From Escherichia phage sortregn: a stretch of DNA of 38,200 nt. The first letter of the stretch is position 1. Each line of letters begins with the position of its first letter. The notes under the pieces are model-generated. The model had not been told where the DNA came from. It ran no database searches and saw nothing but the letters and a program-made list of their open reading frames with translations. The position numbers and the translations under genes are program-made. The stretch lies in sequence record MN850588.1; one strand, given 5' to 3'. This document shows positions 1,538-27,495 of the stretch, piece by piece.

Positions 1538-3580
1538 TTAAAAACCCTCATTCATGAATACTTTGTTAGTGATAACGTCTTTACCCTTGCCGATCTTCCG
1601 GTGGGTAACTTTCAGTGGGGCCATGAAGTACGGCGCGAAGGCGAGGACCTCCTGGGGCGTCCGTAGCTTCTTGATGTCGGCCCGTTTCTTTCCGTCCAGT
1701 ACGTGCTTAAGGATCCCATTGTGGAGCCATTCCTTTTTCGCCTGTGGGCTATCGCTACCGGGCCAGAATACTTGCCACGCCACGAACTGATCGCCGTCCT
1801 TCTCCAACTCGTACCGGAAGGCGATCCCCCCAGTCCCTCGCGCCAATTCCAGACGGAAGCCCCTCACGTTGTAGTAGTCGTCCCTGCTGTACGTGGTCCG
1901 GCTTAAGTTCTTGTTCGGATCTACGAGCGAGTTCCCGCAGCAGCGGCAGATCCTGGCTACGATGTCGTTTTGTGCGCCGCATCCCTTCTGTACCACCTTC
2001 CGCCCGCTGGAGTCCTTCCAGTCGTCGCAGGTGATGAACTGGAAAAAGTGTTCGCAGCGTTCGCCAGTGTCGGGATCGACGTAGCGGCAGCGTCGGGCGT
2101 GTTTGCCGTTTAGCGTCGGGTGGCCCGCCTTGCGACACTTCGGACAGTCTAACTCTAATTCTCCTTTGCTCTCGTCTGCGCTGTGCTGGTATGCCTCCAG
2201 CAGCGGGGAGAAATACAGGGATCCGAGTTCGTCAAGCGTCCCGGCATAGTCGAGGACCAGGTGATCCTCCTTCGTCACCCCGGCGGCGATGTGGAACGGC
2301 TTAAGGATGCGCATACCACGGCCTAAAAGCTGGGTTAGGAGCGTGAGGGATCCGATCTTCCGCAGTATCACGGACGTGTCCCAGAACGGGACGTTAACGC
2401 CAGTCGTTAGGGCGTTAACCTGGAATATAAATTTGATCTCCCCGGTATTGGCGCGGCGCAAAATGTCCATGCGCTTCTTGCCCGTCGTGTCGTCCGTGAT
2501 GATGGCGTAAGGCGTACCAGGGGGAAGGGCCTCCGCCGCCTGTTTGCAGTGTCTCACGCCCGCACACGTCACTAACACGCCGTTCCTGTGCTGGGCGATG
2601 GCGTATACCTCCGCCATGATCTCATGCGTGAGCTTTTTGTCCTTAAGGATCGCCTTTTGCATGGCGTCCATTTCGGCGTCCGTGAACTCCTTAATGCCAT
2701 CCTCGCCGGACGATCGCCACTGGTCGAGGTTGTAGTGGAGATTGGAGATCCCGAAGTGAGTCGGAACAACCGCGCCGACGCTTACCAGGTATTCCGTCGA
2801 GATCTCGCATACCTTCTTACGCCAAAATCCGGGCTGTTCGAGGTCTGGCTGGATGATGGACTCCACGCCACGGTATGGCGTCCCGGTGTAGCCAATAATG
2901 CGGAGTTCCTTCCCGTAGACCTCGCGGGCGCGTTGCTGGAATGTGCGGATAATGATCGTATAGCTGGAGCGACCCGCCTCGATCATCTCCTCGTAAGTCT
3001 CGCCCTTGTGCTCGCCGATAATGGTCGGCTCGTCGAAGCCGTCCAGGATGATCTCCCCGGTTTTCTCGTCCCGCAGGTACTCCGGGACCACGCGCTCCTG
3101 TGAGCGGATCAGGTCCTCAATGTTGACGTGATGGCATTCATCGATCAGCAGGAACAGCGGCGCGTAATGGGCGAGTGCCTGACCTGGGCGGAGTCCTCCG
3201 ATCACTGTACCCTCGGAGCCGACCACGATCGGGAAGTGTGCAGACTTGCGGCCCAGGCTGGCGCAGTAGATCGAGGAGTTCACGCCGAAGTTTTTCAACT
3301 CCTCGAAGTCCTGATCGATGATCTCCCCCTGGCGGGACAGGATCATGGCAGGGAAACCCATATCCCTGATCCGGCGGGCCAGCATGGAGATCATGATGGT
3401 TTTACCCGCACTCACGGCGGCGTCCACAATGACCGGGCCAGGATAGCGACGGATGGCCTCCGCGCAAGCCTCATACGCGACGAACTGGTGATCGTATGGT
3501 GTAACGGGCATATCTCCCAGGGCGCGGAGAATCGCGTCCCGGTCGAGCGCTTCGATCTGTTTCTCCAATGTCATTAACAT
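1538..3580 (-). CDS. SF2 DEAH-box DNA helicase with C-terminal zinc-ribbon region
   Basis: 680 aa ORF; Walker A AAVSAGKT, motif II LLIDECHH, motif III YTGTP, motif VI QLLGRGMR; cysteine clusters CPKCRK, CRCCG. Confidence 0.8.
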   Translation of the reverse strand: MLMTLEKQIEALDRDAILRALGDMPVTPYDHQFVAYEACAEAIRRYPGPVIVDAAVSAGKTIMISMLARRIRDMGFPAMILSRQGEIIDQDFEELKNFGVNSSIYCASLGRKSAHFPIVVGSEGTVIGGLRPGQALAHYAPLFLLIDECHHVNIEDLIRSQERVVPEYLRDEKTGEIILDGFDEPTIIGEHKGETYEEMIEAGRSSYTIIIRTFQQRAREVYGKELRIIGYTGTPYRGVESIIQPDLEQPGFWRKKVCEISTEYLVSVGAVVPTHFGISNLHYNLDQWRSSGEDGIKEFTDAEMDAMQKAILKDKKLTHEIMAEVYAIAQHRNGVLVTCAGVRHCKQAAEALPPGTPYAIITDDTTGKKRMDILRRANTGEIKFIFQVNALTTGVNVPFWDTSVILRKIGSLTLLTQLLGRGMRILKPFHIAAGVTKEDHLVLDYAGTLDELGSLYFSPLLEAYQHSADESKGELELDCPKCRKAGHPTLNGKHARRCRYVDPDTGERCEHFFQFITCDDWKDSSGRKVVQKGCGAQNDIVARICRCCGNSLVDPNKNLSRTTYSRDDYYNVRGFRLELARGTGGIAFRYELEKDGDQFVAWQVFWPGSDSPQAKKEWLHNGILKHVLDGKKRADIKKLRTPQEVLAFAPYFMAPLKVTHRKIGKGKDVITNKVFMNEGF
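1823..1833 (-). repeat. CTGGGGGGATC 11-mer copy (sense strand of helicase gene)
   Basis: Exact match read on minus strand; frame-checked against helicase residues T583-G-G-I586. Confidence 0.85.
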
Positions 3581-3645
3581 TGTTTATCCCTTGTAATATC
3601 ACTAAAGCATGATTTATAGTAACCGGGAAATAACCGGAGGGCAAT
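3581..3645. promoter_or_regulatory. divergent promoter region between helicase and primase operons
   Basis: 65-bp AT-rich intergenic region between divergent genes; tandem GTAACCGG / ATAACCGG repeats just upstream of the primase SD. Confidence 0.4.
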
Positions 3646-4464
3646 ATGGCGATCTACAAAAAAGAGGACGTTCTCGCGGCGATGCCCGGCAAATGGGAAC
3701 AGGCGCTCCTCGATCTTTGTGGCTGGGACCGCAAGGCGTTTAACGGCAATCATCAACCTTGCCCGATCTGTGGCGGGACGGACCGCTTTCGCTGGGGCCA
3801 TAAGCAACAGACGAAGAAGGCGGAGGGCTTCGGCTACTGTTCCGGCTCCTGTGGCGGCGCTCGTGATGGCATGTTTTGGTTCATGACCAGCCGATCGCAG
3901 CCGTTCAACGAGGCGATCAACGACCTGGGCGACTGGATAGGCGGACTCACCCCGGAGAAGCGGGAAACCATCGTCAAGGAGGCGCGGAAGTATGCCCGCC
4001 AGCAGGATAAGCCCGCGCAGGACTGGGAACTCACCCCGGAGGACGTGGACAAGATCATGAGCAAAGGCACGATGCGCGACGGATTCCTGTATGTTCCATG
4101 CGCTCGTCCACTGGGGGGATCCCTGGGGCCGTGGTGCAACGTGGCGAAGATCGGCTCCGACAGGTCCGTGGTGTTTGCCGCTGGTGGCCCGACGTGGGGC
4201 GCGGTAGGTCTGATCCACCCAGTGCCAGACGCTCCGGTGTATCTGGTGGCGGATCCGGTCCATGCGGTGAACGTGGCGGCGCGAGGGGAGGCGGAGGTCT
4301 GGCTTACGTTCCGGCCTATGAACGCGGTCCAGGCGTCGGCGATATATGACGGCGATCGGGAGATCCGGTTCGTCTACACTGACCCGGACGAGGTTTTCCT
4401 GTACGGCTACGAGAGGACGGGGAGGCCATGCGTCGGCGGGCATCTTGCCGGGGCGTTCGGGTAA
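3646..4464 (+). CDS. DNA primase (zinc-ribbon plus TOPRIM-like region)
   Basis: HQPCPICGGTDRFRW and GYCSGSCGG match the primase zinc-binding ribbon of P4-alpha-like primases; later DGD acidic motif; GGAGGG SD upstream. Confidence 0.65.
   Translation: MAIYKKEDVLAAMPGKWEQALLDLCGWDRKAFNGNHQPCPICGGTDRFRWGHKQQTKKAEGFGYCSGSCGGARDGMFWFMTSRSQPFNEAINDLGDWIGGLTPEKRETIVKEARKYARQQDKPAQDWELTPEDVDKIMSKGTMRDGFLYVPCARPLGGSLGPWCNVAKIGSDRSVVFAAGGPTWGAVGLIHPVPDAPVYLVADPVHAVNVAARGEAEVWLTFRPMNAVQASAIYDGDREIRFVYTDPDEVFLYGYERTGRPCVGGHLAGAFG
4111..4121 (+). repeat. CTGGGGGGATC 11-mer copy
   Basis: Exact match; frame-checked against primase residues L156-G-G-S159. Confidence 0.85.
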
Positions 4465-4489
4465 AAAAAAAGGCCCCGCACGAGGGGCC
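4463..4489 (-). terminator. intrinsic terminator oriented for leftward transcription
   Basis: GGCCCC-GCACGA-GGGGCC hairpin 4472-4489 preceded on plus strand by A9, so U9 follows the hairpin on the minus transcript. Confidence 0.55.
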
Positions 4490-4542
4490 AGTGGGCGCGA
4501 CCGATACCAGCGGGCGCTAAAGCAATGGTGAACAGTCAACAA

Positions 4543-4564
4543 ATAGCACTTTTTGTTAAAACAC
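4543..4564 (+). promoter_or_regulatory. conserved promoter-like element copy 1 (ATAGCACTTTTTGTTAAAACAC)
   Basis: 22-mer shared with 6855-6876 (2 mismatches), each about 60-70 bp upstream of a rightward operon start. Confidence 0.35.
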
Positions 4565-4616
4565 AAAACAGTTAATCAATTATCGTTAGTCACCACCAAC
4601 CAAAGAAGGGCAGCAG

Positions 4617-5258
4617 ATGAAAGACGAGAAAGACACCACCACGATCGATCATGTGGACGGCATGACCGAGGCGGAACGCGCAGCGGCAGACGTGACCACT
4701 GTTAGCGGTCGCCGCTTCAACAAATCCAAGACGCCGGACGCTATCCGCCAGAAGTGGCAGACCCCGCGCTGGCTGTTCGACTGGGCCGTGAAGCGCTTCG
4801 GGCAATTCGGGATCGATGTGGCAGCAGAAAAGGCTAACGCCCTTTGTGATGTCTACCTGGACGAGAAAACGGACGCCCTCAAGGATGGCGTGGAGTGGGG
4901 AGCCGAGGGCGGGCTGGCGTGGTGTAACCCGCCATACGCGGAGCCGCTTCCGTGGATCGTGAAGGCCATCCAGCAAGCGAAGGATCGCGACGTTACGACC
5001 GTGTTTCTCCTGAACTCCGACGCGTCTACGGCGTGGTTTAAGAAGGCGCTGGACGCCGGGAGCCTGGTTATCCATATCACCAGCGACGGCGAGAACTCCG
5101 GGCGCGTGGCGTTCGTGAAGGCCGGGACCGAAGTCGCGGGCAAGAAGAACAGCAAGCCGTCCGTAATGTTCGTTATCAAGCCGAAGAAGCGCGGACCGAT
5201 CAAGACTGAATATCTGACCCAGGCGGAGATGATGTTCGAAGGCAAAACGATGATTTAA
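4617..5258 (+). CDS. DNA N6-adenine methyltransferase (phage Dam-like)
   Basis: 213 aa; WQTPRWLFDW N-terminal motif and NPPY catalytic motif (WCNPPYAEP) typical of the phage N6A methylase family. Confidence 0.8.
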   Translation: MKDEKDTTTIDHVDGMTEAERAAADVTTVSGRRFNKSKTPDAIRQKWQTPRWLFDWAVKRFGQFGIDVAAEKANALCDVYLDEKTDALKDGVEWGAEGGLAWCNPPYAEPLPWIVKAIQQAKDRDVTTVFLLNSDASTAWFKKALDAGSLVIHITSDGENSGRVAFVKAGTEVAGKKNSKPSVMFVIKPKKRGPIKTEYLTQAEMMFEGKTMI

Positions 5259-15100: not shown

Positions 15101-15328
15101 GGCCCGTCACGACGACGAGGAAACGAGGAGATGATGATGAATGACGAACACGGCAAGAAATCCAACGTAGCGGACGTCTCGCATATGTATGTAGGCCCGA
15201 ACCAACGCGCCTCACTGCTGGAGAAGGCGTTCGAGATGTTCAGAGCGGCGGCGTCGTGATCCTGGACTCGTCCGTGGTCGAATGGTCCGAAGTGGAGGCA
15301 TACCGCCCGGCAAAGTGAGGGCCGGGAC

Positions 15329-19214: not shown

Positions 19215-21449
19215 ATGGCACGAGTTAAAAAATCGGTGCAGAACTGGCAGGAATGCGCCCGGAAGAAATTAAGCGCCGCGATCGGGGCGGAGGACACCAG
19301 CCGCAAGAAGATGATCGAAACGGCGCGATTTGTCCGCATTCCTGGCGCTCAGTGGGAAGGCTCCACGAACTCCGGCTTTGCGATGGATGATGAACGTTTC
19401 CAGAAATACCCGCGATTTGAGCTAAACAAGGTCGGGCGCGAGGTGGATCGCATCATTTCAGACTACCGCCTGAACCGCGTAAACGTCACGTTCCGCCCGA
19501 AGGACACCCAGGCCTCCGAAGAACTGGCGGACAAGCTGAACGGCAAGTTTCGCGCAGACTTCAACGAGTCGAACGGCTCCGAAGCCGTGGACAACACCTA
19601 CGAGGACGGCGTGACGGGCGGAATGGGCGCTTTCCGCATGGACACCGAACTGGAGGACGAGTTCGACCCGGACAACGAACAGCGTCACATTGTTTTTTAC
19701 CCGATCTATGATCCGGCCTCGTGCCTGTTTATCGATCAGGACTCCAAGATGTACGATCGCAGTGATGCTATGTGGATGGCGGAGCTATTCAGCATGACCC
19801 CGGACAAGTACGAGGAGCGCTATCCCGACGCCCTCGCCCCGGAGGACCTGATGGCGATCGATACCGGGAAACAATTCGACTGGGCCACGAAGGACGCGAT
19901 CTATCTGGCGCGTTACTACGAGGTGAAGATCGAGGACACCACCGTGATCTCCTACAAGAACCCGTTAACCGGGGAGGTGGAGGTCTACGACGAGGACGAG
20001 ATCGAGCAGATCGAGGACGAACTGGAGGCCGGAGGCTGGGAACGCCAGAAGGATCGCAAGGTCAAGCGCCGCAAGGTCTATTGCGGACTTATGACTGGTG
20101 GCGAATGGCTGGAGGAGCCGAAGCTGATCCCGTTCGAGTGGATCCCGATCTTCGTGTTCAACGCCCGCCGCTCGTTCATCGACAACATGGAACGCGTAAG
20201 CGGTCACGCGACCCAGGCCCTCGACGCGCAACGTCTGGAAAACCTGATCGTGTCCATGATGGCGGACCAGGCCGCGCAGTCTGGCGGCGATAACATCCCG
20301 ATCATGGACATTGATATGATTCCCGGAGCGCTGGCTGACGCCTGGGGGGAACGTAACACGAAGCGCCCGGCATACTTGCCCGCTAAATCGCTCCGTAACG
20401 CCGCTGGTGAGGTTGTGCAGCAAGCCGGGCCACTGGGTTACACGCCATCGACGCCGCTCTCTCCGGCGCTGGCAGCGGTCCTACAGTACACCGGGAGCAC
20501 TATCCAGCAGATCGTCGGCTCGTCCCAGGTGGAGGCGTTACCGTCGAACCTGGCGACCGAAACCGTGGAGGCCATTTTCGCCCGTATGGACGGACAGGGC
20601 GCTCTCTACATGGACAACCTGGGGAAAACGCTCCGCCACTGTGGGCGCGTGTACCTCAGCGCGGCCCGCAAGGTCTACGGCTCGGAGAATTACGTCCGCG
20701 TGAAGAACGAGGACGGGACCGACGATCTCGTGTTAATGACCGGGAAAGTGATCGATCGTGACACGGACGAGGCGATCGCGATTAACGACCTCAAGCGCGG
20801 GAAATATGAGGTCGAGGCCGACGTGGGCGAGTCCTCCCAGACGAAGCGCGTCGCAACCGTTCGCAGCCTGACGAATCTCCTCCAGTCCATGCAGCCTGGC
20901 GACCCGAACGCCGCCGTAGTGATGGGCCTGATCATCATGAACATGGACGGCGAAGGCTTGCAGGACTTCAAGGAATACAGCCGCCGCCAGCTTCTCCTGA
21001 ATGGCATCGTGAAGCCGCAGACGGACGAGGAGAAAGCGATGGTAGCCGAGGCCCAGCAAGCCGCCCAGCAGCAGCCGGACGCGCAGATGGTAGCCGCTCA
21101 GGGCGTAGCGCAGCAGGGACAGGCCGCAGTGATGGAGCAGGAGAACAAGCGTTTAGAACTGACGCTCAAGGCGCAGAGCACCGCGTCCGACGGTCAACTG
21201 AAAAACGCGCAGACGGTCAAGACGATGGCAGAGGCGGCGGCAATCCCGCAGGATCAGCTATTGAGCGCGATCGCCGTTCTCCAGAAGTACGTCTCCCAGC
21301 AGAACAGCGACGCCCACAAACAGGCGGATCTGTTCCTCAAGGCTCAGGGACAGGGCCACACCCAGCGCGAGGACCAGATGGCCCGCGAGATGGCAGAGCG
21401 CCAGGCATCGCAGAGCGCCGATCGTCAACTGGGATTAGCTGGCCTGTAA
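19215..21449 (+). CDS. portal protein (P22 gp1-like, Q/A-rich helical C-terminus)
   Basis: 744 aa, follows TerL, GGAGAA SD, intrinsic terminator after stop. Confidence 0.8.
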   Translation: MARVKKSVQNWQECARKKLSAAIGAEDTSRKKMIETARFVRIPGAQWEGSTNSGFAMDDERFQKYPRFELNKVGREVDRIISDYRLNRVNVTFRPKDTQASEELADKLNGKFRADFNESNGSEAVDNTYEDGVTGGMGAFRMDTELEDEFDPDNEQRHIVFYPIYDPASCLFIDQDSKMYDRSDAMWMAELFSMTPDKYEERYPDALAPEDLMAIDTGKQFDWATKDAIYLARYYEVKIEDTTVISYKNPLTGEVEVYDEDEIEQIEDELEAGGWERQKDRKVKRRKVYCGLMTGGEWLEEPKLIPFEWIPIFVFNARRSFIDNMERVSGHATQALDAQRLENLIVSMMADQAAQSGGDNIPIMDIDMIPGALADAWGERNTKRPAYLPAKSLRNAAGEVVQQAGPLGYTPSTPLSPALAAVLQYTGSTIQQIVGSSQVEALPSNLATETVEAIFARMDGQGALYMDNLGKTLRHCGRVYLSAARKVYGSENYVRVKNEDGTDDLVLMTGKVIDRDTDEAIAINDLKRGKYEVEADVGESSQTKRVATVRSLTNLLQSMQPGDPNAAVVMGLIIMNMDGEGLQDFKEYSRRQLLLNGIVKPQTDEEKAMVAEAQQAAQQQPDAQMVAAQGVAQQGQAAVMEQENKRLELTLKAQSTASDGQLKNAQTVKTMAEAAAIPQDQLLSAIAVLQKYVSQQNSDAHKQADLFLKAQGQGHTQREDQMAREMAERQASQSADRQLGLAGL

Positions 21450-21479
21450 CTGGTCGGACCGCACGAAAAGCTAAAGACA

Positions 21480-21505
21480 AGCCCGCTTCGGCGGGCTATT
21501 CTTTG
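21480..21505 (+). terminator. intrinsic terminator after portal gene
   Basis: AGCCCGC-TTCG-GCGGGCT hairpin followed by ATTCTTTG. Confidence 0.6.
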
Positions 21506-21508
21506 CCT

Positions 21509-21519
21509 CGACACATCAC
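21509..21519 (+). repeat. CGACACATCAC element copy 1 (after portal terminator)
   Basis: 11-mer identical to 25041-25051; 25 nt upstream of ATG 21544. Confidence 0.7.
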
Positions 21520-21543
21520 TAAACCATTACAAAGGAGTTTTGA

Positions 21544-21765
21544 ATGGCCCGATCACTGATAGCAGTCAAAGACGCCGCCGGGGAAAAGTACCTCCTCCCG
21601 GTCCGTAACATCGTGAGCGTGACGGAGTTCCCGGACAACGAGCGCCGCGTGGAGGTCAAGGTCCGCGAGCCGATCAATGGCCCAGACGGGCGGATCTGTG
21701 GGTACGAGTTAAACCTGTATTACTCGCCAATGTCGATCGCACAATTCGAAGGGGCTTACGCGTGA
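21544..21765 (+). CDS. hypothetical protein
   Basis: 73 aa ORF, AAGGAG SD, first of four coupled small genes. Confidence 0.45.
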   Translation: MARSLIAVKDAAGEKYLLPVRNIVSVTEFPDNERRVEVKVREPINGPDGRICGYELNLYYSPMSIAQFEGAYA

Positions 21766-21932
21766 AACGCTACAAATGCACCGTAGGCGACAAGCGCGGG
21801 GCGTTCGGCGACTGTATGGAGCAGGACAAGGACGGGGACTGGATGCGCGTCTCCGACCATAATCGACACATTCAGGCACTGGAGCGCCAGATCGCGGCGC
21901 TAAAGGCCAAAACCAGAGAGACGAAACAATGA
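21762..21932 (+). CDS. possible small protein (56 aa, GTG start)
   Basis: Own reading; overlaps both neighbours (GTGA and ATGA); below ORF-track cutoff. Confidence 0.3.
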   Translation: MKRYKCTVGDKRGAFGDCMEQDKDGDWMRVSDHNRHIQALERQIAALKAKTRETKQ

Positions 21933-22297
21933 AAACGACCTACAACCTCGACCAGATGGCCCTCTTTTCTGCGATCGCCGCAGCGGTAGGAAAACAGGCG
22001 CCAGGGCTTCCGGCGGATAACCGCGCTAACGTGGTGATCGAGGCCGCAAACATGATCGTAGCGGCCTATGCGCTGACCGATGCCGAATACATGGCGAAGA
22101 AGGCAGAAGCGCCGATCGCCGTTGACCTCCAGCCGACGGCGGAACAGGTGGAGGCCGGGATCGCCTCGCTGTGGGACACCATCCCCGGCGCGATGGATCA
22201 GCTATGCCAGGACGTGGCAGAGGAGGAGCAGGGCGATCTATTCTCCGACGCTGTTACTTTCGTGTGGCAAGCCATGATCGGGAAGCGTCCACAATGA
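21929..22297 (+). CDS. hypothetical protein
   Basis: 122 aa ORF, ATGA coupling. Confidence 0.45.
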   Translation: MKTTYNLDQMALFSAIAAAVGKQAPGLPADNRANVVIEAANMIVAAYALTDAEYMAKKAEAPIAVDLQPTAEQVEAGIASLWDTIPGAMDQLCQDVAEEEQGDLFSDAVTFVWQAMIGKRPQ

Positions 22298-22563
22298 GCG
22301 TAATCCATCACTACCTCGCCTTTCCGGGCGGGGGAGTGTCCGCCCTCCGCAAGCTGGGCCAGACGCTCGAAGAACGCCACGACCTCGACGGCATACTGGA
22401 GGGGCCGGAGGAGGGGGAGCGCTGGCGCATCGTAGCCAGTGAGATGATCCACGCCGCAGAAGGGCCAGACGTCGCGCTCTACTACGTGATCCCCGCTTCG
22501 GTTCCACCGCACCACGAGGCGCTCTATCTCTCGCAAGCCCTCGTAAAAGCCGCCACGAAATAA
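22294..22563 (+). CDS. hypothetical protein
   Basis: Internal ATG 22294 of ORF 22171..22563 overlapping previous stop; 89 aa. Confidence 0.4.
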   Translation: MSVIHHYLAFPGGGVSALRKLGQTLEERHDLDGILEGPEEGERWRIVASEMIHAAEGPDVALYYVIPASVPPHHEALYLSQALVKAATK

Positions 22564-22572
22564 CCCGCCACC

Positions 22573-22583
22573 CTGGGGGGATC
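22573..22583 (+). repeat. CTGGGGGGATC 11-mer copy (intergenic, part of hairpin)
   Basis: Exact match 10 nt after stop of the 89-aa gene. Confidence 0.8.
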
Positions 22584-22612
22584 GTTAATCGCGATCTCCC
22601 CTATTTGCATTT
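22575..22612 (+). terminator. hairpin with T-rich tail (possible terminator/attenuator)
   Basis: GGGGGGATCG-TTAATCG-CGATCTCCCC 10-bp stem with one G-T pair, followed by TATTTGCATTTT. Confidence 0.4.
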
Positions 22613-22690
22613 TCCCGCCGCCCTCGCTTAAACTTACTCCCGCCACCGATGGGCGAATACATCGCGTATGCAACAAAACGAGGATCTACG

Positions 22691-23689
22691 ATGAAATTCC
22701 GTGAAATGTTTTTGAAATATTATGCACCGTACACCGAGAACGACGGCGGCGCGGCGGCATATGAAGCTATGCAGAACGGCAACTCTCAGGAAGCCACGGA
22801 CGACACCCCGGACACTGACCCGAACGAGCAGGACCACGACAACGACAACGACGTGGACACCGATCTGGACGAGCAGGATCTGGACGAGAACGGCAAGCCG
22901 AAGGCGAAGGAAGGCGGCGAGAACGCGGAAACCGAGGACGAGGAGGAGGAGTTCCTGTTCGACGGTCAACCAGTTACCGCAGCGCCTACGGACGAAGATG
23001 ATCAGGAAGGCGACAGCGACCTGGTGAAACATCTCCGCGCCCAACTCCGCGAGCAGAAAAAACAATTCAAGACCTCCACCCAGGCGGCGCAGGAGCGCAA
23101 AGAGATTCCCGCAGATATGCCCCGCAAGCCAGAGATGGGCGACGAGGGGATCGACTGGGACCCGGAGAAGTACGCCGAAGCGCTGGACAAGTGGACCGAG
23201 GACAAGGCCGCTTATCAGCAGCGCGAGCAGGAGATGGCAGCGAAGCGCGAAGCGTTCGGGAAGAAATTCTCCGAAGGCCAGCAGCGCTACCAGACCGAAC
23301 GCGCTAAGGCGATCAAGAAGTATGCGGGCTTTGAGAAGGCCGAAGCCGCGATCGCAGAACTGCCGGAGCCGTTACAGGCGGGCCTGATGATCAACAGTAA
23401 GAACCCGGCGGCGCTGGTCATGGTACTGGGACGTAACGCTGATTTGCGGAAGCAAGTCGAGGATGCCTATAATAGCGACCATATCGCGCTGGGCTACCTA
23501 ATCCGCGATATTGAGGCCCGCGCAGGTTCCAAGCCGAAGGCGAAACAGAATCTCAATTCTACGCCAGAAGTTAAGGGCCAGAACGGAGTCGCAAACGTCG
23601 GACAACTGGAAGCACTTCGCAAACGAGCGGAAGCGACCGGGGATTATACGGAATACTTCGCAGCCAAGAACAAACGGGCTGAAAAGTAA
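22691..23689 (+). CDS. scaffolding protein (P22 gp8-like)
   Basis: ORF 22649..23689 with start moved to ATG 22691 after ACGAGGA; highly acidic N-terminus, C-terminal helices resemble P22 gp8 coat-binding region; precedes coat gene. Confidence 0.7.
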   Translation: MKFREMFLKYYAPYTENDGGAAAYEAMQNGNSQEATDDTPDTDPNEQDHDNDNDVDTDLDEQDLDENGKPKAKEGGENAETEDEEEEFLFDGQPVTAAPTDEDDQEGDSDLVKHLRAQLREQKKQFKTSTQAAQERKEIPADMPRKPEMGDEGIDWDPEKYAEALDKWTEDKAAYQQREQEMAAKREAFGKKFSEGQQRYQTERAKAIKKYAGFEKAEAAIAELPEPLQAGLMINSKNPAALVMVLGRNADLRKQVEDAYNSDHIALGYLIRDIEARAGSKPKAKQNLNSTPEVKGQNGVANVGQLEALRKRAEATGDYTEYFAAKNKRAEK

Positions 23690-23719: not shown

Positions 23720-24976
23720 ATGGCTAACCAGTTAGCGAAGGATCTCGAAATTGCATTCGAGAATTATGTGGCAGGCTTTGACGCGTCTTGCGTAGTATCG
23801 CAGAACGCAGCCAAATTCCGCCCGGATGATACCGCGATGCAACGCGCCGGGGACGTGATCTATCGTCCGCAGCACTACCACGCGGATATTTTGGAAGGTC
23901 TGGATCTGACTGGCAAGGCCGGGACCGATATCGTCCAGCGCCTGGTCCCGTCGGCGTTCAAAGAACCTCAGAACGTGCTCTATAAGCTGGACGCTCGCGA
24001 AATGCGCGACCCAGAGCACAAGAAAGAAATGGGCCGAGCAGCGGGCCAACGTATCGCAGCGAAGATCGACTCCGATCTGATCAACGCCGCAGCACGTTAC
24101 GCGACGCACGTCGTCCCGGTAGGCACTAACACGACCGGAACCCTGGGCCGCGACCTGTGGAACGCAGCGGCGGGCGTGGATGCCGAAATGACCGCTATCG
24201 GGATCCCGGTAGGCGTGAACCGTCGTTCCTTCTGGAACCCCTTCTCCTACAAAGACCTTGCGGGCGAACTGGGCGGACGCCAGTACGTCGCGGGCGTGAC
24301 CCTCTCCGCATACGAGAAGGCGCAGATCCCGGATGTGGCGAGCTTCGACTCCTACAAGACGGACATCTCTCCGCGTCTGGGCGCTGGCCCGACTGGAGCG
24401 ATCACCCTGACCGCAGCCCCGGCGCACAAAGTCCAGTCTAAGAACGCGAACGACATCCCGGTGGATAACCGCGAAGGCGTGATCGATGTTTCTGCTGGTC
24501 ACGGTCTGAAGGCTGGCGACGCGTTCACTATCGCGGGCGTTCACTCCGTCCACATGATCAGCAAGGACACGACTGATCAGCTTCAAGTGTTCCGTGTGCT
24601 GGCAGTGTCCGACAACAACGTAACGATCACCCCGCAGATCCTCCCGCCGGATAACGCGGATCTGCCGTCTCGTCCTTACTCCAACGTGGACGCGAACGCA
24701 GCCTCCGGCGCTGAACTGACCGTTATCAACAAGAACGCGGCGAACGCTAACTTGCTGTGGGCGGACGGCTCCGTGGAGCTTATGCTGGGTAATCTGGCGT
24801 TCCCGACTGGTCAAGGCCCGCAGGTTATGCGCGCTACCGCGAAGAACGGCGCGACGCTGATCATGTCCTACAGCTTCGACCACATCGCGGGCGTCACCAC
24901 TTGCCGCTTTACCACGCTTTACGGCGTTTCCGTCCTCGTGCCGGAATATGTCGGCCTGGTACTGCCGAACCAGTAA
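23720..24976 (+). CDS. major capsid (coat) protein, P22 gp5-like
   Basis: 418 aa; several collinear matches to P22 coat protein (MQRAGDVIYRP, LLWADGSVELM, C-terminal YGVSVLVPEYVGLVLP); strong terminator after stop. Confidence 0.85.
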   Translation: MANQLAKDLEIAFENYVAGFDASCVVSQNAAKFRPDDTAMQRAGDVIYRPQHYHADILEGLDLTGKAGTDIVQRLVPSAFKEPQNVLYKLDAREMRDPEHKKEMGRAAGQRIAAKIDSDLINAAARYATHVVPVGTNTTGTLGRDLWNAAAGVDAEMTAIGIPVGVNRRSFWNPFSYKDLAGELGGRQYVAGVTLSAYEKAQIPDVASFDSYKTDISPRLGAGPTGAITLTAAPAHKVQSKNANDIPVDNREGVIDVSAGHGLKAGDAFTIAGVHSVHMISKDTTDQLQVFRVLAVSDNNVTITPQILPPDNADLPSRPYSNVDANAASGAELTVINKNAANANLLWADGSVELMLGNLAFPTGQGPQVMRATAKNGATLIMSYSFDHIAGVTTCRFTTLYGVSVLVPEYVGLVLPNQ

Positions 24977-24996
24977 GACGCGACGCGCAGCACAAA

Positions 24997-25022
24997 GGGG
25001 AGCCATTGGCTCCTCTTTTTTT
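24997..25022 (+). terminator. strong intrinsic terminator after coat gene
   Basis: GGAGCC-ATTG-GCTCC hairpin followed by T-rich run. Confidence 0.75.
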
Positions 25023-25040: not shown

Positions 25041-25051
25041 CGACACATCAC
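25041..25051 (+). repeat. CGACACATCAC element copy 2 (after coat terminator)
   Basis: 11-mer identical to 21509-21519; 20 nt upstream of ATG 25071. Confidence 0.7.
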
Positions 25052-25070
25052 CCTATCAAGAGGATCTACC

Positions 25071-25589
25071 ATGTCACGCAATAAGACCGCGATCGCCGTA
25101 GCTATGACCATGATTTACACCCGCCCCGCTATCATCGCCGGGGAAAATATCAAAGGTCTGGAAGTCCTGACCCGCGACCACACGGACGGCCCCTACGCCC
25201 GCGCCTCGTTCCCGGATGAAGAAGCCGCCGAGCGTCTGGAGTCTGGCTTCTGGGTGGATCATCCGGTCAAACTCTCCACGCTGGACAAGGCGATCGCCGA
25301 AGCCGCTCAGAAGGAAGCGGAGCAGGACAAAAAGGACGCCGACAACCAGAAAGCCGAGCAGGTGAAGAAGGAGCAGGACGAGAAGGTGGAAGATAAGGCC
25401 CCAGAATCGACCGCTACGGCCTCCGAGCAGAAAGACGACCCGAAGGCCACCGAAGCGGAAAAAGCCGCAGAGAGCGGCGCAGAGGCTCAGGAATCCACCC
25501 AGGAAGCGAAGGCCGACGAATCCAAGCCGAAAGACGGCGAGAAGGTAGACGGCGCGAAAGTTCCGACTGATAAGAAGGCGAAGAAATAA
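25071..25589 (+). CDS. hypothetical protein with Lys/Glu/Ala/Asp-rich disordered tail
   Basis: Internal ATG 25071 of ORF 24948..25589 after AAGAGGA; roughly 75 aa ordered N-terminus then charged low-complexity tail. Confidence 0.5.
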   Translation: MSRNKTAIAVAMTMIYTRPAIIAGENIKGLEVLTRDHTDGPYARASFPDEEAAERLESGFWVDHPVKLSTLDKAIAEAAQKEAEQDKKDADNQKAEQVKKEQDEKVEDKAPESTATASEQKDDPKATEAEKAAESGAEAQESTQEAKADESKPKDGEKVDGAKVPTDKKAKK

Positions 25590-27484: not shown

Positions 27485-27495
27485 CTGGGGGGATC
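27485..27495 (+). repeat. CTGGGGGGATC 11-mer copy (immediately 5-prime of gp26-like ATG)
   Basis: Exact match ending one base before ATG 27496. Confidence 0.85.

Follow-up and report, generated by a model that had tools for sequence, protein, structure and literature searches.

Synthesis of the P22 scaffold protein is autoregulated post-transcriptionally, as an earlier note on this DNA had stated and as is reported in the literature, with the N-terminus of the protein implicated. The literature searched describes no RNA site or target for this autoregulation, and the scaffold protein is not known to bind RNA. The leader of T4 gene 32 offers a described example of such control: a small H-type pseudoknot at its 5′ end is the autoregulatory operator, an unstructured A-rich stretch extends from there to the ribosome-binding site, and the product is needed in large, assembly-dependent amounts. 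In T7, a dedicated promoter precedes the scaffold-capsid pair and a strong terminator stands right after the capsid gene (phi9, phi10 and T-phi), an arrangement that boosts the most abundant structural proteins. Hairpins at the 5′ end of a transcript can also act through stability, as in the ompA-type stabilisers that protect E. coli mRNAs.

The window, by which we mean the whole 38,200-nt stretch of Escherichia phage sortregn DNA analysed here, is by its sequence a Murrayvirus genome. Over the 2.4 kb around the scaffold leader, megablast found 98.7% identity to Salmonella phage Lumpael (Murrayvirus), and the sortregn genome has been reported as 38,200 bp long with 97.3% identity to Lumpael (PMC7552041). 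Whole-genome alignment of the two phages revealed a circular permutation and an otherwise collinear sequence with one 3.3-kb gap. About 3.3 kb of Lumpael (1932-5235), holding the small hypothetical genes gp05-gp12, is missing from sortregn, where the junction lies at 15241-15242.

Around the leader all genes are on the + strand, in the order large terminase, portal, four small ORFs, scaffold, major capsid protein, and head-completion and tail genes (Table 1). Portal, scaffold and coat come in the same order in P22, and the sortregn scaffold protein is a homolog, about 38% identical to the CUS-3/Sf101-type scaffolds of P22-like phages. In contrast to P22, whose portal-scaffold gap is 13 bp and lacks the RNA element described below, sortregn has a gap of 127 bp between the last small ORF and the scaffold gene, and this gap holds the repeats and the hairpin that had drawn attention to the region.

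The gap is noncoding, with 1-nt indels among relatives, yet it is the most conserved DNA nearby. Only about 7 of its 127 positions differ between sortregn and IME_EC2, whereas the 2.4 kb around it is about 84% identical. By megablast, similarity to Sortsne begins exactly at the gap, and the sole megablast match to Kosakonia phage Kc237 covers 22627-22702. As the earlier note had it, the region lies upstream of the scaffold gene; it is far more conserved than its flanks. For comparison, we collected scaffold-upstream regions, drawing on annotated phages, on viral and genome contigs and on contigs that encode diverse homologs of the scaffold, which gave about 35 distinct versions. Homolog loci numbered 3 in the genome-contig scan, 17 in the scaffold-based viral scan and 80 in the capsid-based scan, the last being mostly near-identical Sf101-type prophages. 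As the protein database has just 78 scaffold clusters, the sequence diversity available is nearly exhausted.

Table 1. Features of the sortregn scaffold locus, in positions of the window
Feature	Position	Strand	Basis
Portal gene	19215-21449	+	ORF list and Lumpael annotation
Small ORF, homolog of Lumpael gp53; stop TAA 22561-22563	22294..22563	+	Mapped Lumpael annotation, ORF list
Copy 1, CCCGCCACC, right after stop codon, 5′ of hairpin	22564..22572	+	Sequence; relatives
CTGGGGGGATC, forms hairpin 5′ arm; exact copy of over-represented genome motif	22573..22583	+	Motif counts; relatives
G-run hairpin, 11 pairs (2 G.U), 5-nt loop UAAUC, terminator-like	22575..22601	+	Terminator scan, folding
T-rich tract TATTTGCATTTT, imperfect U-tract overlapping -35 hexamer	22602..22613	+	Sequence, terminator scan
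-35-like hexamer TTGCAT	22605..22610	+	TTGNNN or TTTACA there in 18/18 lytic-type leaders
Copy 2, CCCGCCGCC, within 18-nt promoter spacer 22611-22628	22614..22622	+	Sequence; spacers unrelated between lineages
-10-like hexamer TAAACT; predicted start ~22641-22643	22629..22634	+	TANNNT in 18/18 lytic-type leaders
Copy 3, CCCGCCACC; CGCC 22641-22644 is proposed 5′ strand of stem 1	22639..22647	+	Sequence; pair analysis
Conserved leader RNA element, proposed H-type pseudoknot	22641..22666	+	Covariance model, pair counts, identity
Ribosome-binding site GAGGATCTACG and scaffold start ATG 22691; GAGGA 22680-22684	22680..22693	+	Sequence, annotation, relatives
Scaffold protein gene, 332 aa, CUS-3/Sf101-type P22-like homolog	22691..23689	+	ORF list, Lumpael annotation, homology
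Major capsid protein gene	23720-24976	+	ORF list and Lumpael annotation
Strong terminator after capsid gene	24994-25018	–	Terminator scan

Repeats, hairpin and predicted promoter upstream of the scaffold gene

The earlier note had pointed out three copies of CCCGCCRCC and a hairpin between the first two, and had proposed the repeats as candidate cis elements for scaffold control. The copies do begin at 22564, 22614 and 22639, 50 and 25 bp apart. Genome-wide there are seven matches to CCCGCCRCC against 2.3 expected, with three of the seven in this 84-bp stretch. When the gap was shuffled 2000 times with dinucleotides preserved, a triple 9-mer with at most one mismatch arose 28 times (1.4%), and some such triple occurs in 53 of 952 equal-size windows of the sortregn genome (5.6%); the triple repeat is weakly to mildly unusual, and the hairpin is clearly above chance.

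Copy 1 is kept as CCC(G/A)CCAC in Murrayvirus, Sortsnevirus, L136, Kc166B and C130_2, and is absent from Kc259-type and temperate relatives. Copy 2 sits in the spacer of the predicted promoter and is absent outside Murrayvirus (Kc237/sortkaff type, type B, Skarpretter, C130_2, Kc166B, Kc259 and temperate leaders), and this lack of conservation, which the earlier note itself had named as refuting its proposal, speaks against that proposal for copy 2. Copy 3 alone overlaps the conserved element at 22641-22666; beyond the closest genera, conservation is limited to its GCC/CGCC part. Nor does the set resemble a direct-repeat operator or iterons, as not all copies are conserved and intervals of 25 and 50 bp are not helically phased. 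The three copies are not one repeat family but unrelated pieces of a putative terminator-promoter-leader cassette, placed in the hairpin flank, the promoter spacer and stem 1 of the proposed pseudoknot. By eye, copy 1 with the hairpin and copy 3 with the element share CCCGCCACC ... AUCGCG, and the former may be an old duplicate of the latter.

The hairpin with its G-run and following T-rich tract is real: it contains CTGGGGGGATC, has 11 pairs and is followed 3′ of the stem by TATTTGCATTTT. It folds at -19.9 kcal/mol (z = -3.57; none of 200 shuffles folds as well), 7 of its 11 pairs are G-C, and, starting 12 nt past the stop codon, it is the best terminator-like match of the region. Like an intrinsic terminator, it combines a GC-rich stem-loop just past a stop codon with a T-rich tract. 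Hairpins at the same position in six relatives have energies of -15 to -21 kcal/mol. Those of Skarpretter and C130_2 are canonical terminator hairpins followed by U6, with the G-run as the 3′ arm; the G-run makes up the 5′ arm in Murrayvirus, Sortsne, L140, L136 and the Kc237/sortkaff type. Because its G.U pairs can form only on the + strand, and because L136 carries one compensatory change (C-G in place of the sortregn pair G22578-C22598), we take the hairpin to work as + strand RNA. Unlike a canonical terminator, that of sortregn has an interrupted U-tract (UAUUUGCAUUUU), which passes the terminator scan rule, and the tract is missing altogether from type B leaders and L136, which keep the hairpin; termination may therefore be partial in sortregn, and its efficiency is doubtful in those relatives. 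The sequence CTGGGGGGATC is kept in relatives even where its hairpin partner differs, and copy 1 together with CTGGGNGGAT(C) is kept in most lytic lineages, even in Kc166B, which has no hairpin.

From its form and from the canonical versions at the same place, the hairpin probably behaves like an inter-gene terminator. Both copy 1 and the hairpin precede the predicted promoter, so that only transcripts reading through from upstream would carry them. What stands of the earlier proposal is that the region probably carries signals for scaffold expression, but the repeats and the hairpin are not the best candidates for them.

All 18 lytic-type leaders share a -35-like hexamer followed, after 17-18 nt, by TANNNT, from whose end it is 10-16 nt to the RNA element; the hexamers persist while the spacer sequences are unrelated. 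This arrangement is found in none of 7 temperate-type leaders. In sortregn it matches 7 of 12 consensus positions across an 18-nt spacer, and the -10 hexamer keeps the key T1, A2 and T6; a consensus promoter scan did not report TTGCAT-18 nt-TAAACT, which fell below its threshold. We infer promoter activity and a start site for this pair of hexamers from their sequence and conservation. No description of promoters in these phages was found in the literature searched.

A terminator follows the capsid gene in sortregn and in all relatives checked, and a stem-loop or terminator is annotated at the same post-capsid site in P22 and Sf6. With a predicted promoter before the scaffold gene and a terminator after the capsid gene, the scaffold-capsid pair looks like an expression unit of its own in the lytic phages. 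The layout would be that of the T7 pair, except that the putative promoter here is of the host sigma-70 type and not of the phage RNA polymerase type; no RNA polymerase gene was seen in the Lumpael annotation. Lytic relatives of P22 would differ from temperate ones in having a host-type promoter, usually with a hairpin, immediately upstream of the element, as temperate relatives have neither.

A conserved 26-nt element in the scaffold leader

The core of the element averages 0.79 identity, compared with 0.51-0.57 for flanks and coding segments. In the proposed fold, stem 1 pairs 22641-22644 (CGCC) with 22652-22655 (the loop GGCG), and stem 2 pairs 22647-22651 with 22660-22664, extended by C22646-G22666 with C22665 bulged. 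The two stems are interleaved, which is the topology of an H-type pseudoknot, and GUA stands at 22666-22668; read 3′ of copy 3, the sequence is CGAUG-GGCGAAUA-CAUCG, then CGUA. Loop 1 has 1-3 nt, loop 2 none, and loop 3 3-9 nt and is A-rich. Variation and indels among relatives are concentrated in these loops. In every lineage, 7-20 nt separate the end of the element from the Shine-Dalgarno sequence.

We counted pairs in 35 distinct sequences. Cells are paired in 95% of cases, compared with 16-42% when the partners are slid, and the pairs of stem 2 are 99.5% intact. Within stem 2, columns 21-39 are A-U in 33 sequences and U-A in 2, and columns 23-37 are G.U in 3 sequences. Base pairing, and not coding, explains the paired A-to-U/U-to-A change. 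Stem 1 has two invariant pairs, a pair that swaps (columns 13-26: G-C 31, C-G 4, never a mismatch) and a fourth pair that is half unpaired (columns 12-27: C-G 9, U-A 8, G.U 1, unpaired 17). The covariation support is modest, with about one independent double substitution per stem, each probably a single evolutionary event. Nested folding predicts stem 2 in all representatives tested; folding energies of the element are no better than those of shuffles (z of -0.3 to +1.0), a measure in which nested folding cannot evaluate a pseudoknot. We consider stem 2 likely and the chances of the pseudoknot fold about even.

A covariance model, R1, built from 21 versions of the element matched exactly once at each of 37 loci and once in each of the complete genomes of IME_EC2 and Skarpretter, every match falling upstream of the scaffold gene. 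The element precedes the scaffold gene also in Skarpretter, C130_2, Kc259, Kc166B and the Sf101/CUS-3-type Lederbergviruses, and in prophage-like contigs whose scaffolds carry the database names Citrobacter, Serratia, Providencia and Xenorhabdus. It persists before scaffolds whose proteins are just 32-45% identical, and across those scaffolds little or nothing changes in the loop GGG, in the flanking GCC or in the 3′ CG-N-GUA. In lytic phages it stands at the predicted 5′ end of the transcript, and in temperate phages in the middle of a long late transcript. R1 had no match in the first 8 kb of P22 or of Sf6, nor in four distant scaffold lineages, so that Sf6 and these lineages are, like P22, without the element. 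Among distant scaffold lineages, L130, L144 and L145 are without it, and L131/L132 show a partial resemblance only (GCCTTCCGACAGGGCG). A permissive cmscan of 21300-23000 against Rfam (E up to 10) returned no match within 22564-22700, and the literature searched contains no paper describing the element, which is apparently undescribed.

Temperate relatives carry a further conserved sequence, GGCC(T/G)GGCA-N-CCTATTGCC, just upstream of the element (for example in Sf101, L028, at about 1535-1560). The Sf101 version, TGGCAC-N4-TTGC, is one base short of the sigma-54 -24/-12 spacing, and the temperate GGCA...TGCC could form a small hairpin competing with stem 1.

Other readings of the leader were considered and rejected. 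An ATG at 22649 does not serve as the scaffold start, as one-base indels between 22649 and 22691 break the frame (Lumpael, ST231, KMB41 and IME_EC2), and the same 1-nt indels exclude a minus-strand ORF at 22524-22676 (50 aa). A leader peptide begun at the AUG of the element would have 2, 6 or 18 codons or be fused to the scaffold, depending on the phage, and lacks a Shine-Dalgarno sequence. A long-range fold of the whole gap, in which copy 2 pairs with GAUGGGCG, has a z of -0.9 and involves a copy that relatives lack. For protein P0003, from a sortkaff-like contig, the database scaffold ORF runs through the leader and gives an N-terminus of MGEYIAYATKRGST; its start is probably mis-annotated, by the same over-extension as in the ORF from 22649. 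Scaffold ORFs are over-extended in this way in several database entries, and the comparison is useful for annotation and for phage engineering.

Motif excess and shared intergenic sequences in the genome

The sequence at the 5′ arm of the hairpin recurs through the genome. Exact copies of CTGGGGGGATC number nine, at 1823(-), 4111, 9473(-), 15329, 22573, 27485, 30346, 31429 and 34415. The shorter CTGGGNGGATC occurs 18 times in sortregn, 20 times in IME_EC2 and 6 times in Skarpretter, compared with about 0.5 expected after allowing for an excess of GATC. That excess amounts to 494 GATC sites in 38.2 kb (one every 77 bp), where base composition predicts about 139; IME_EC2 has 522 sites, Skarpretter 512 and the first 8 kb of P22 12. 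Two methyltransferases, one of them Dam-like, are encoded by these phages. By the Lumpael annotation, most copies of the motif lie inside genes, and the exact CTGGGGGGATC copies that do so are all on the sense strand. Pairing of CUGGGGGGAUC with the 16S rRNA 3′ tail is predicted at -12.7 kcal/mol, within the top 0.4% of sortregn 11-mers and stronger than the real ribosome-binding sites tested; the copy at 27485 is the ribosome-binding region of the needle gene.

Two other gaps share sequences with each other or with the scaffold leader. CGACACATCAC occurs exactly twice, at 21509-21519 after the portal gene and at 25041-25051 after the capsid gene. Each copy stands 6 nt past a TANNNT (TATTCT and TATACT), and a terminator hairpin, overlapping the promoter-like spacer or -35, lies just upstream of it; in the scaffold leader, CGCCACC takes the corresponding place. 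The post-portal copy is conserved in IME_EC2 and not in more distant relatives. It falls within a 53-bp stretch, 21470-21522, with the hairpin AGCCCGC-TTCG-GCGGGCT. Escherichia phage C130_2 and Stutzerimonas phage STP9 have unannotated DNA that matches this stretch at 94% identity, and there the genes flanking it have no detectable DNA similarity to those of sortregn. The IME_EC2 version of this hairpin has another loop and a compensated stem. Finally, the gene that follows the capsid gene, at 25071, shares the ribosome-binding cassette of the scaffold gene, GAGGATCTAC(G/C)ATG (22680-22693 and 25060-25073).

Candidate control of the scaffold-capsid unit

On balance, we favour an explanation in four parts (hairpin, promoter, element and ribosome-binding site), by which the gap would be a compact control region dividing the portal/accessory-gene transcript from the scaffold-capsid expression unit. 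The stable hairpin 12 nt past the stop codon would end or attenuate incoming transcripts, or stabilise their 3′ end, and a host sigma-70-type promoter would start a new transcript at about 22641-22643. This transcript would begin almost directly with the 26-nt element, most simply a small H-type pseudoknot, and a strong ribosome-binding site with the start codon would close the region. The element would be a cis-acting site for post-transcriptional scaffold control: most likely a phage protein, such as free scaffold, would bind it and act on the ribosome-binding site 15 nt downstream, and/or the element would be a 5′ structure that protects the mRNA.

The proposal of post-transcriptional scaffold control draws on the T4 gene 32 operator and on P22 scaffold autoregulation. 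The sortregn leader resembles that of gene 32 in its short loop 1, absent loop 2, A-rich loop 3 and the CGUAUGCAACAAAAC that comes before GAGGA; it differs in that there is no sequence similarity and in that the pseudoknot here has modest covariation only. Since P22 itself is without the element, the link to its autoregulation is one of analogy and is hypothetical. In its most specific form, the proposal would make the element the RNA operator of a large P22-like clade comprising Murray-, Sortsne-, Skarpretter-, Hungario- and Kosakonia-type lytic phages and CUS-3/Sf101-type prophages of E. coli, Citrobacter, Serratia, Providencia and Xenorhabdus, with unassembled scaffold or another procapsid protein binding it and so matching translation to assembly. 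We put this forward tentatively, as a possibility suggested by analogy.

The main alternative to post-transcriptional control is a role as 5′ stabiliser. In its simplest version, stem 2 would be a 5′-proximal hairpin that stabilises the scaffold-capsid mRNA, with no pseudoknot and no dedicated regulator, and the region would then be an ordinary terminator-promoter-leader cassette. The near-complete integrity of stem 2 across the alignment, its prediction by nested folding in every representative tested and a predicted start that puts it within a few nucleotides of the 5′ end all agree with such a role. A stabiliser, however, needs structure and not sequence, whereas the loop GGG, the GCC and the CG-N-GUA stay near-invariant between scaffolds of 32-45% identity; the G-C to C-G swap at columns 13-26 ties the 5′ flank to the loop; and temperate phages keep the element in mid-transcript. 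We regard this simplest version as rather unlikely. The invariant loop and flank nucleotides, the distance of 7-20 nt from the Shine-Dalgarno sequence, and the presence of the element both at 5′ ends and within transcripts argue for recognition by a factor over mere stability.

Control could also act on the DNA, if the inverted repeat GGGGGGATCG...CGATCTCCCC, whose centre lies about 54 bp before the predicted start, were together with CCCGCCACC the site at which a phage or host transcription factor controls the scaffold promoter, with CTGGGNGGATC as the recognition sequence. A promoter that is weak alone would suit activation by such a factor, the motif exceeds its expected number in the genome about 40-fold, and lineages with a different hairpin partner still keep the sequence CCC(G/A)CCAC and then CTGGGNGGAT(C), which abuts the -35 in Kc166B, where there is no hairpin. 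Yet 14 of the 18 motif copies, mapped to the Lumpael annotation, lie inside genes and not at promoters, and the distance from motif to -35 varies from 11 to 32 nt by hand count. The G.U pairs and the compensatory change fit pairing of one RNA strand, and in Skarpretter and C130_2 a canonical terminator has the G-run as its 3′ arm. We think a transcription-factor site improbable. More doubtful still is the reading closest to the earlier note, by which the scaffold protein would regulate its own synthesis through RNA sites made up of the CCCGCCRCC copies and the G-run hairpin. In its favour, the repeats and the hairpin do exist, members of Murrayvirus conserve the gap strongly, and copies 1 and 3 are conserved beyond the genus; against it, the triple repeat is only weakly unusual, copy 2 is lacking from the leaders of type B, Skarpretter, C130_2, Kc166B, Kc259 and the temperate phages, the predicted promoter lies downstream of copy 1 and the hairpin, and temperate relatives keep the element without copy 1, copy 2 or the G-run hairpin. 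The element is the better candidate, compared with the repeats, for post-transcriptional scaffold control, a function that we propose from comparative evidence.

Scaffold and capsid proteins are needed in large, balanced amounts, and the element is a concrete candidate for a site through which scaffold expression may be controlled, being present in single copy, strongly conserved, and placed before scaffolds down to about 33% identity in lytic and temperate phages alike. If the operator proposal is true, the element would provide a defined RNA target for a regulatory loop that has been known just phenomenologically since 1985.
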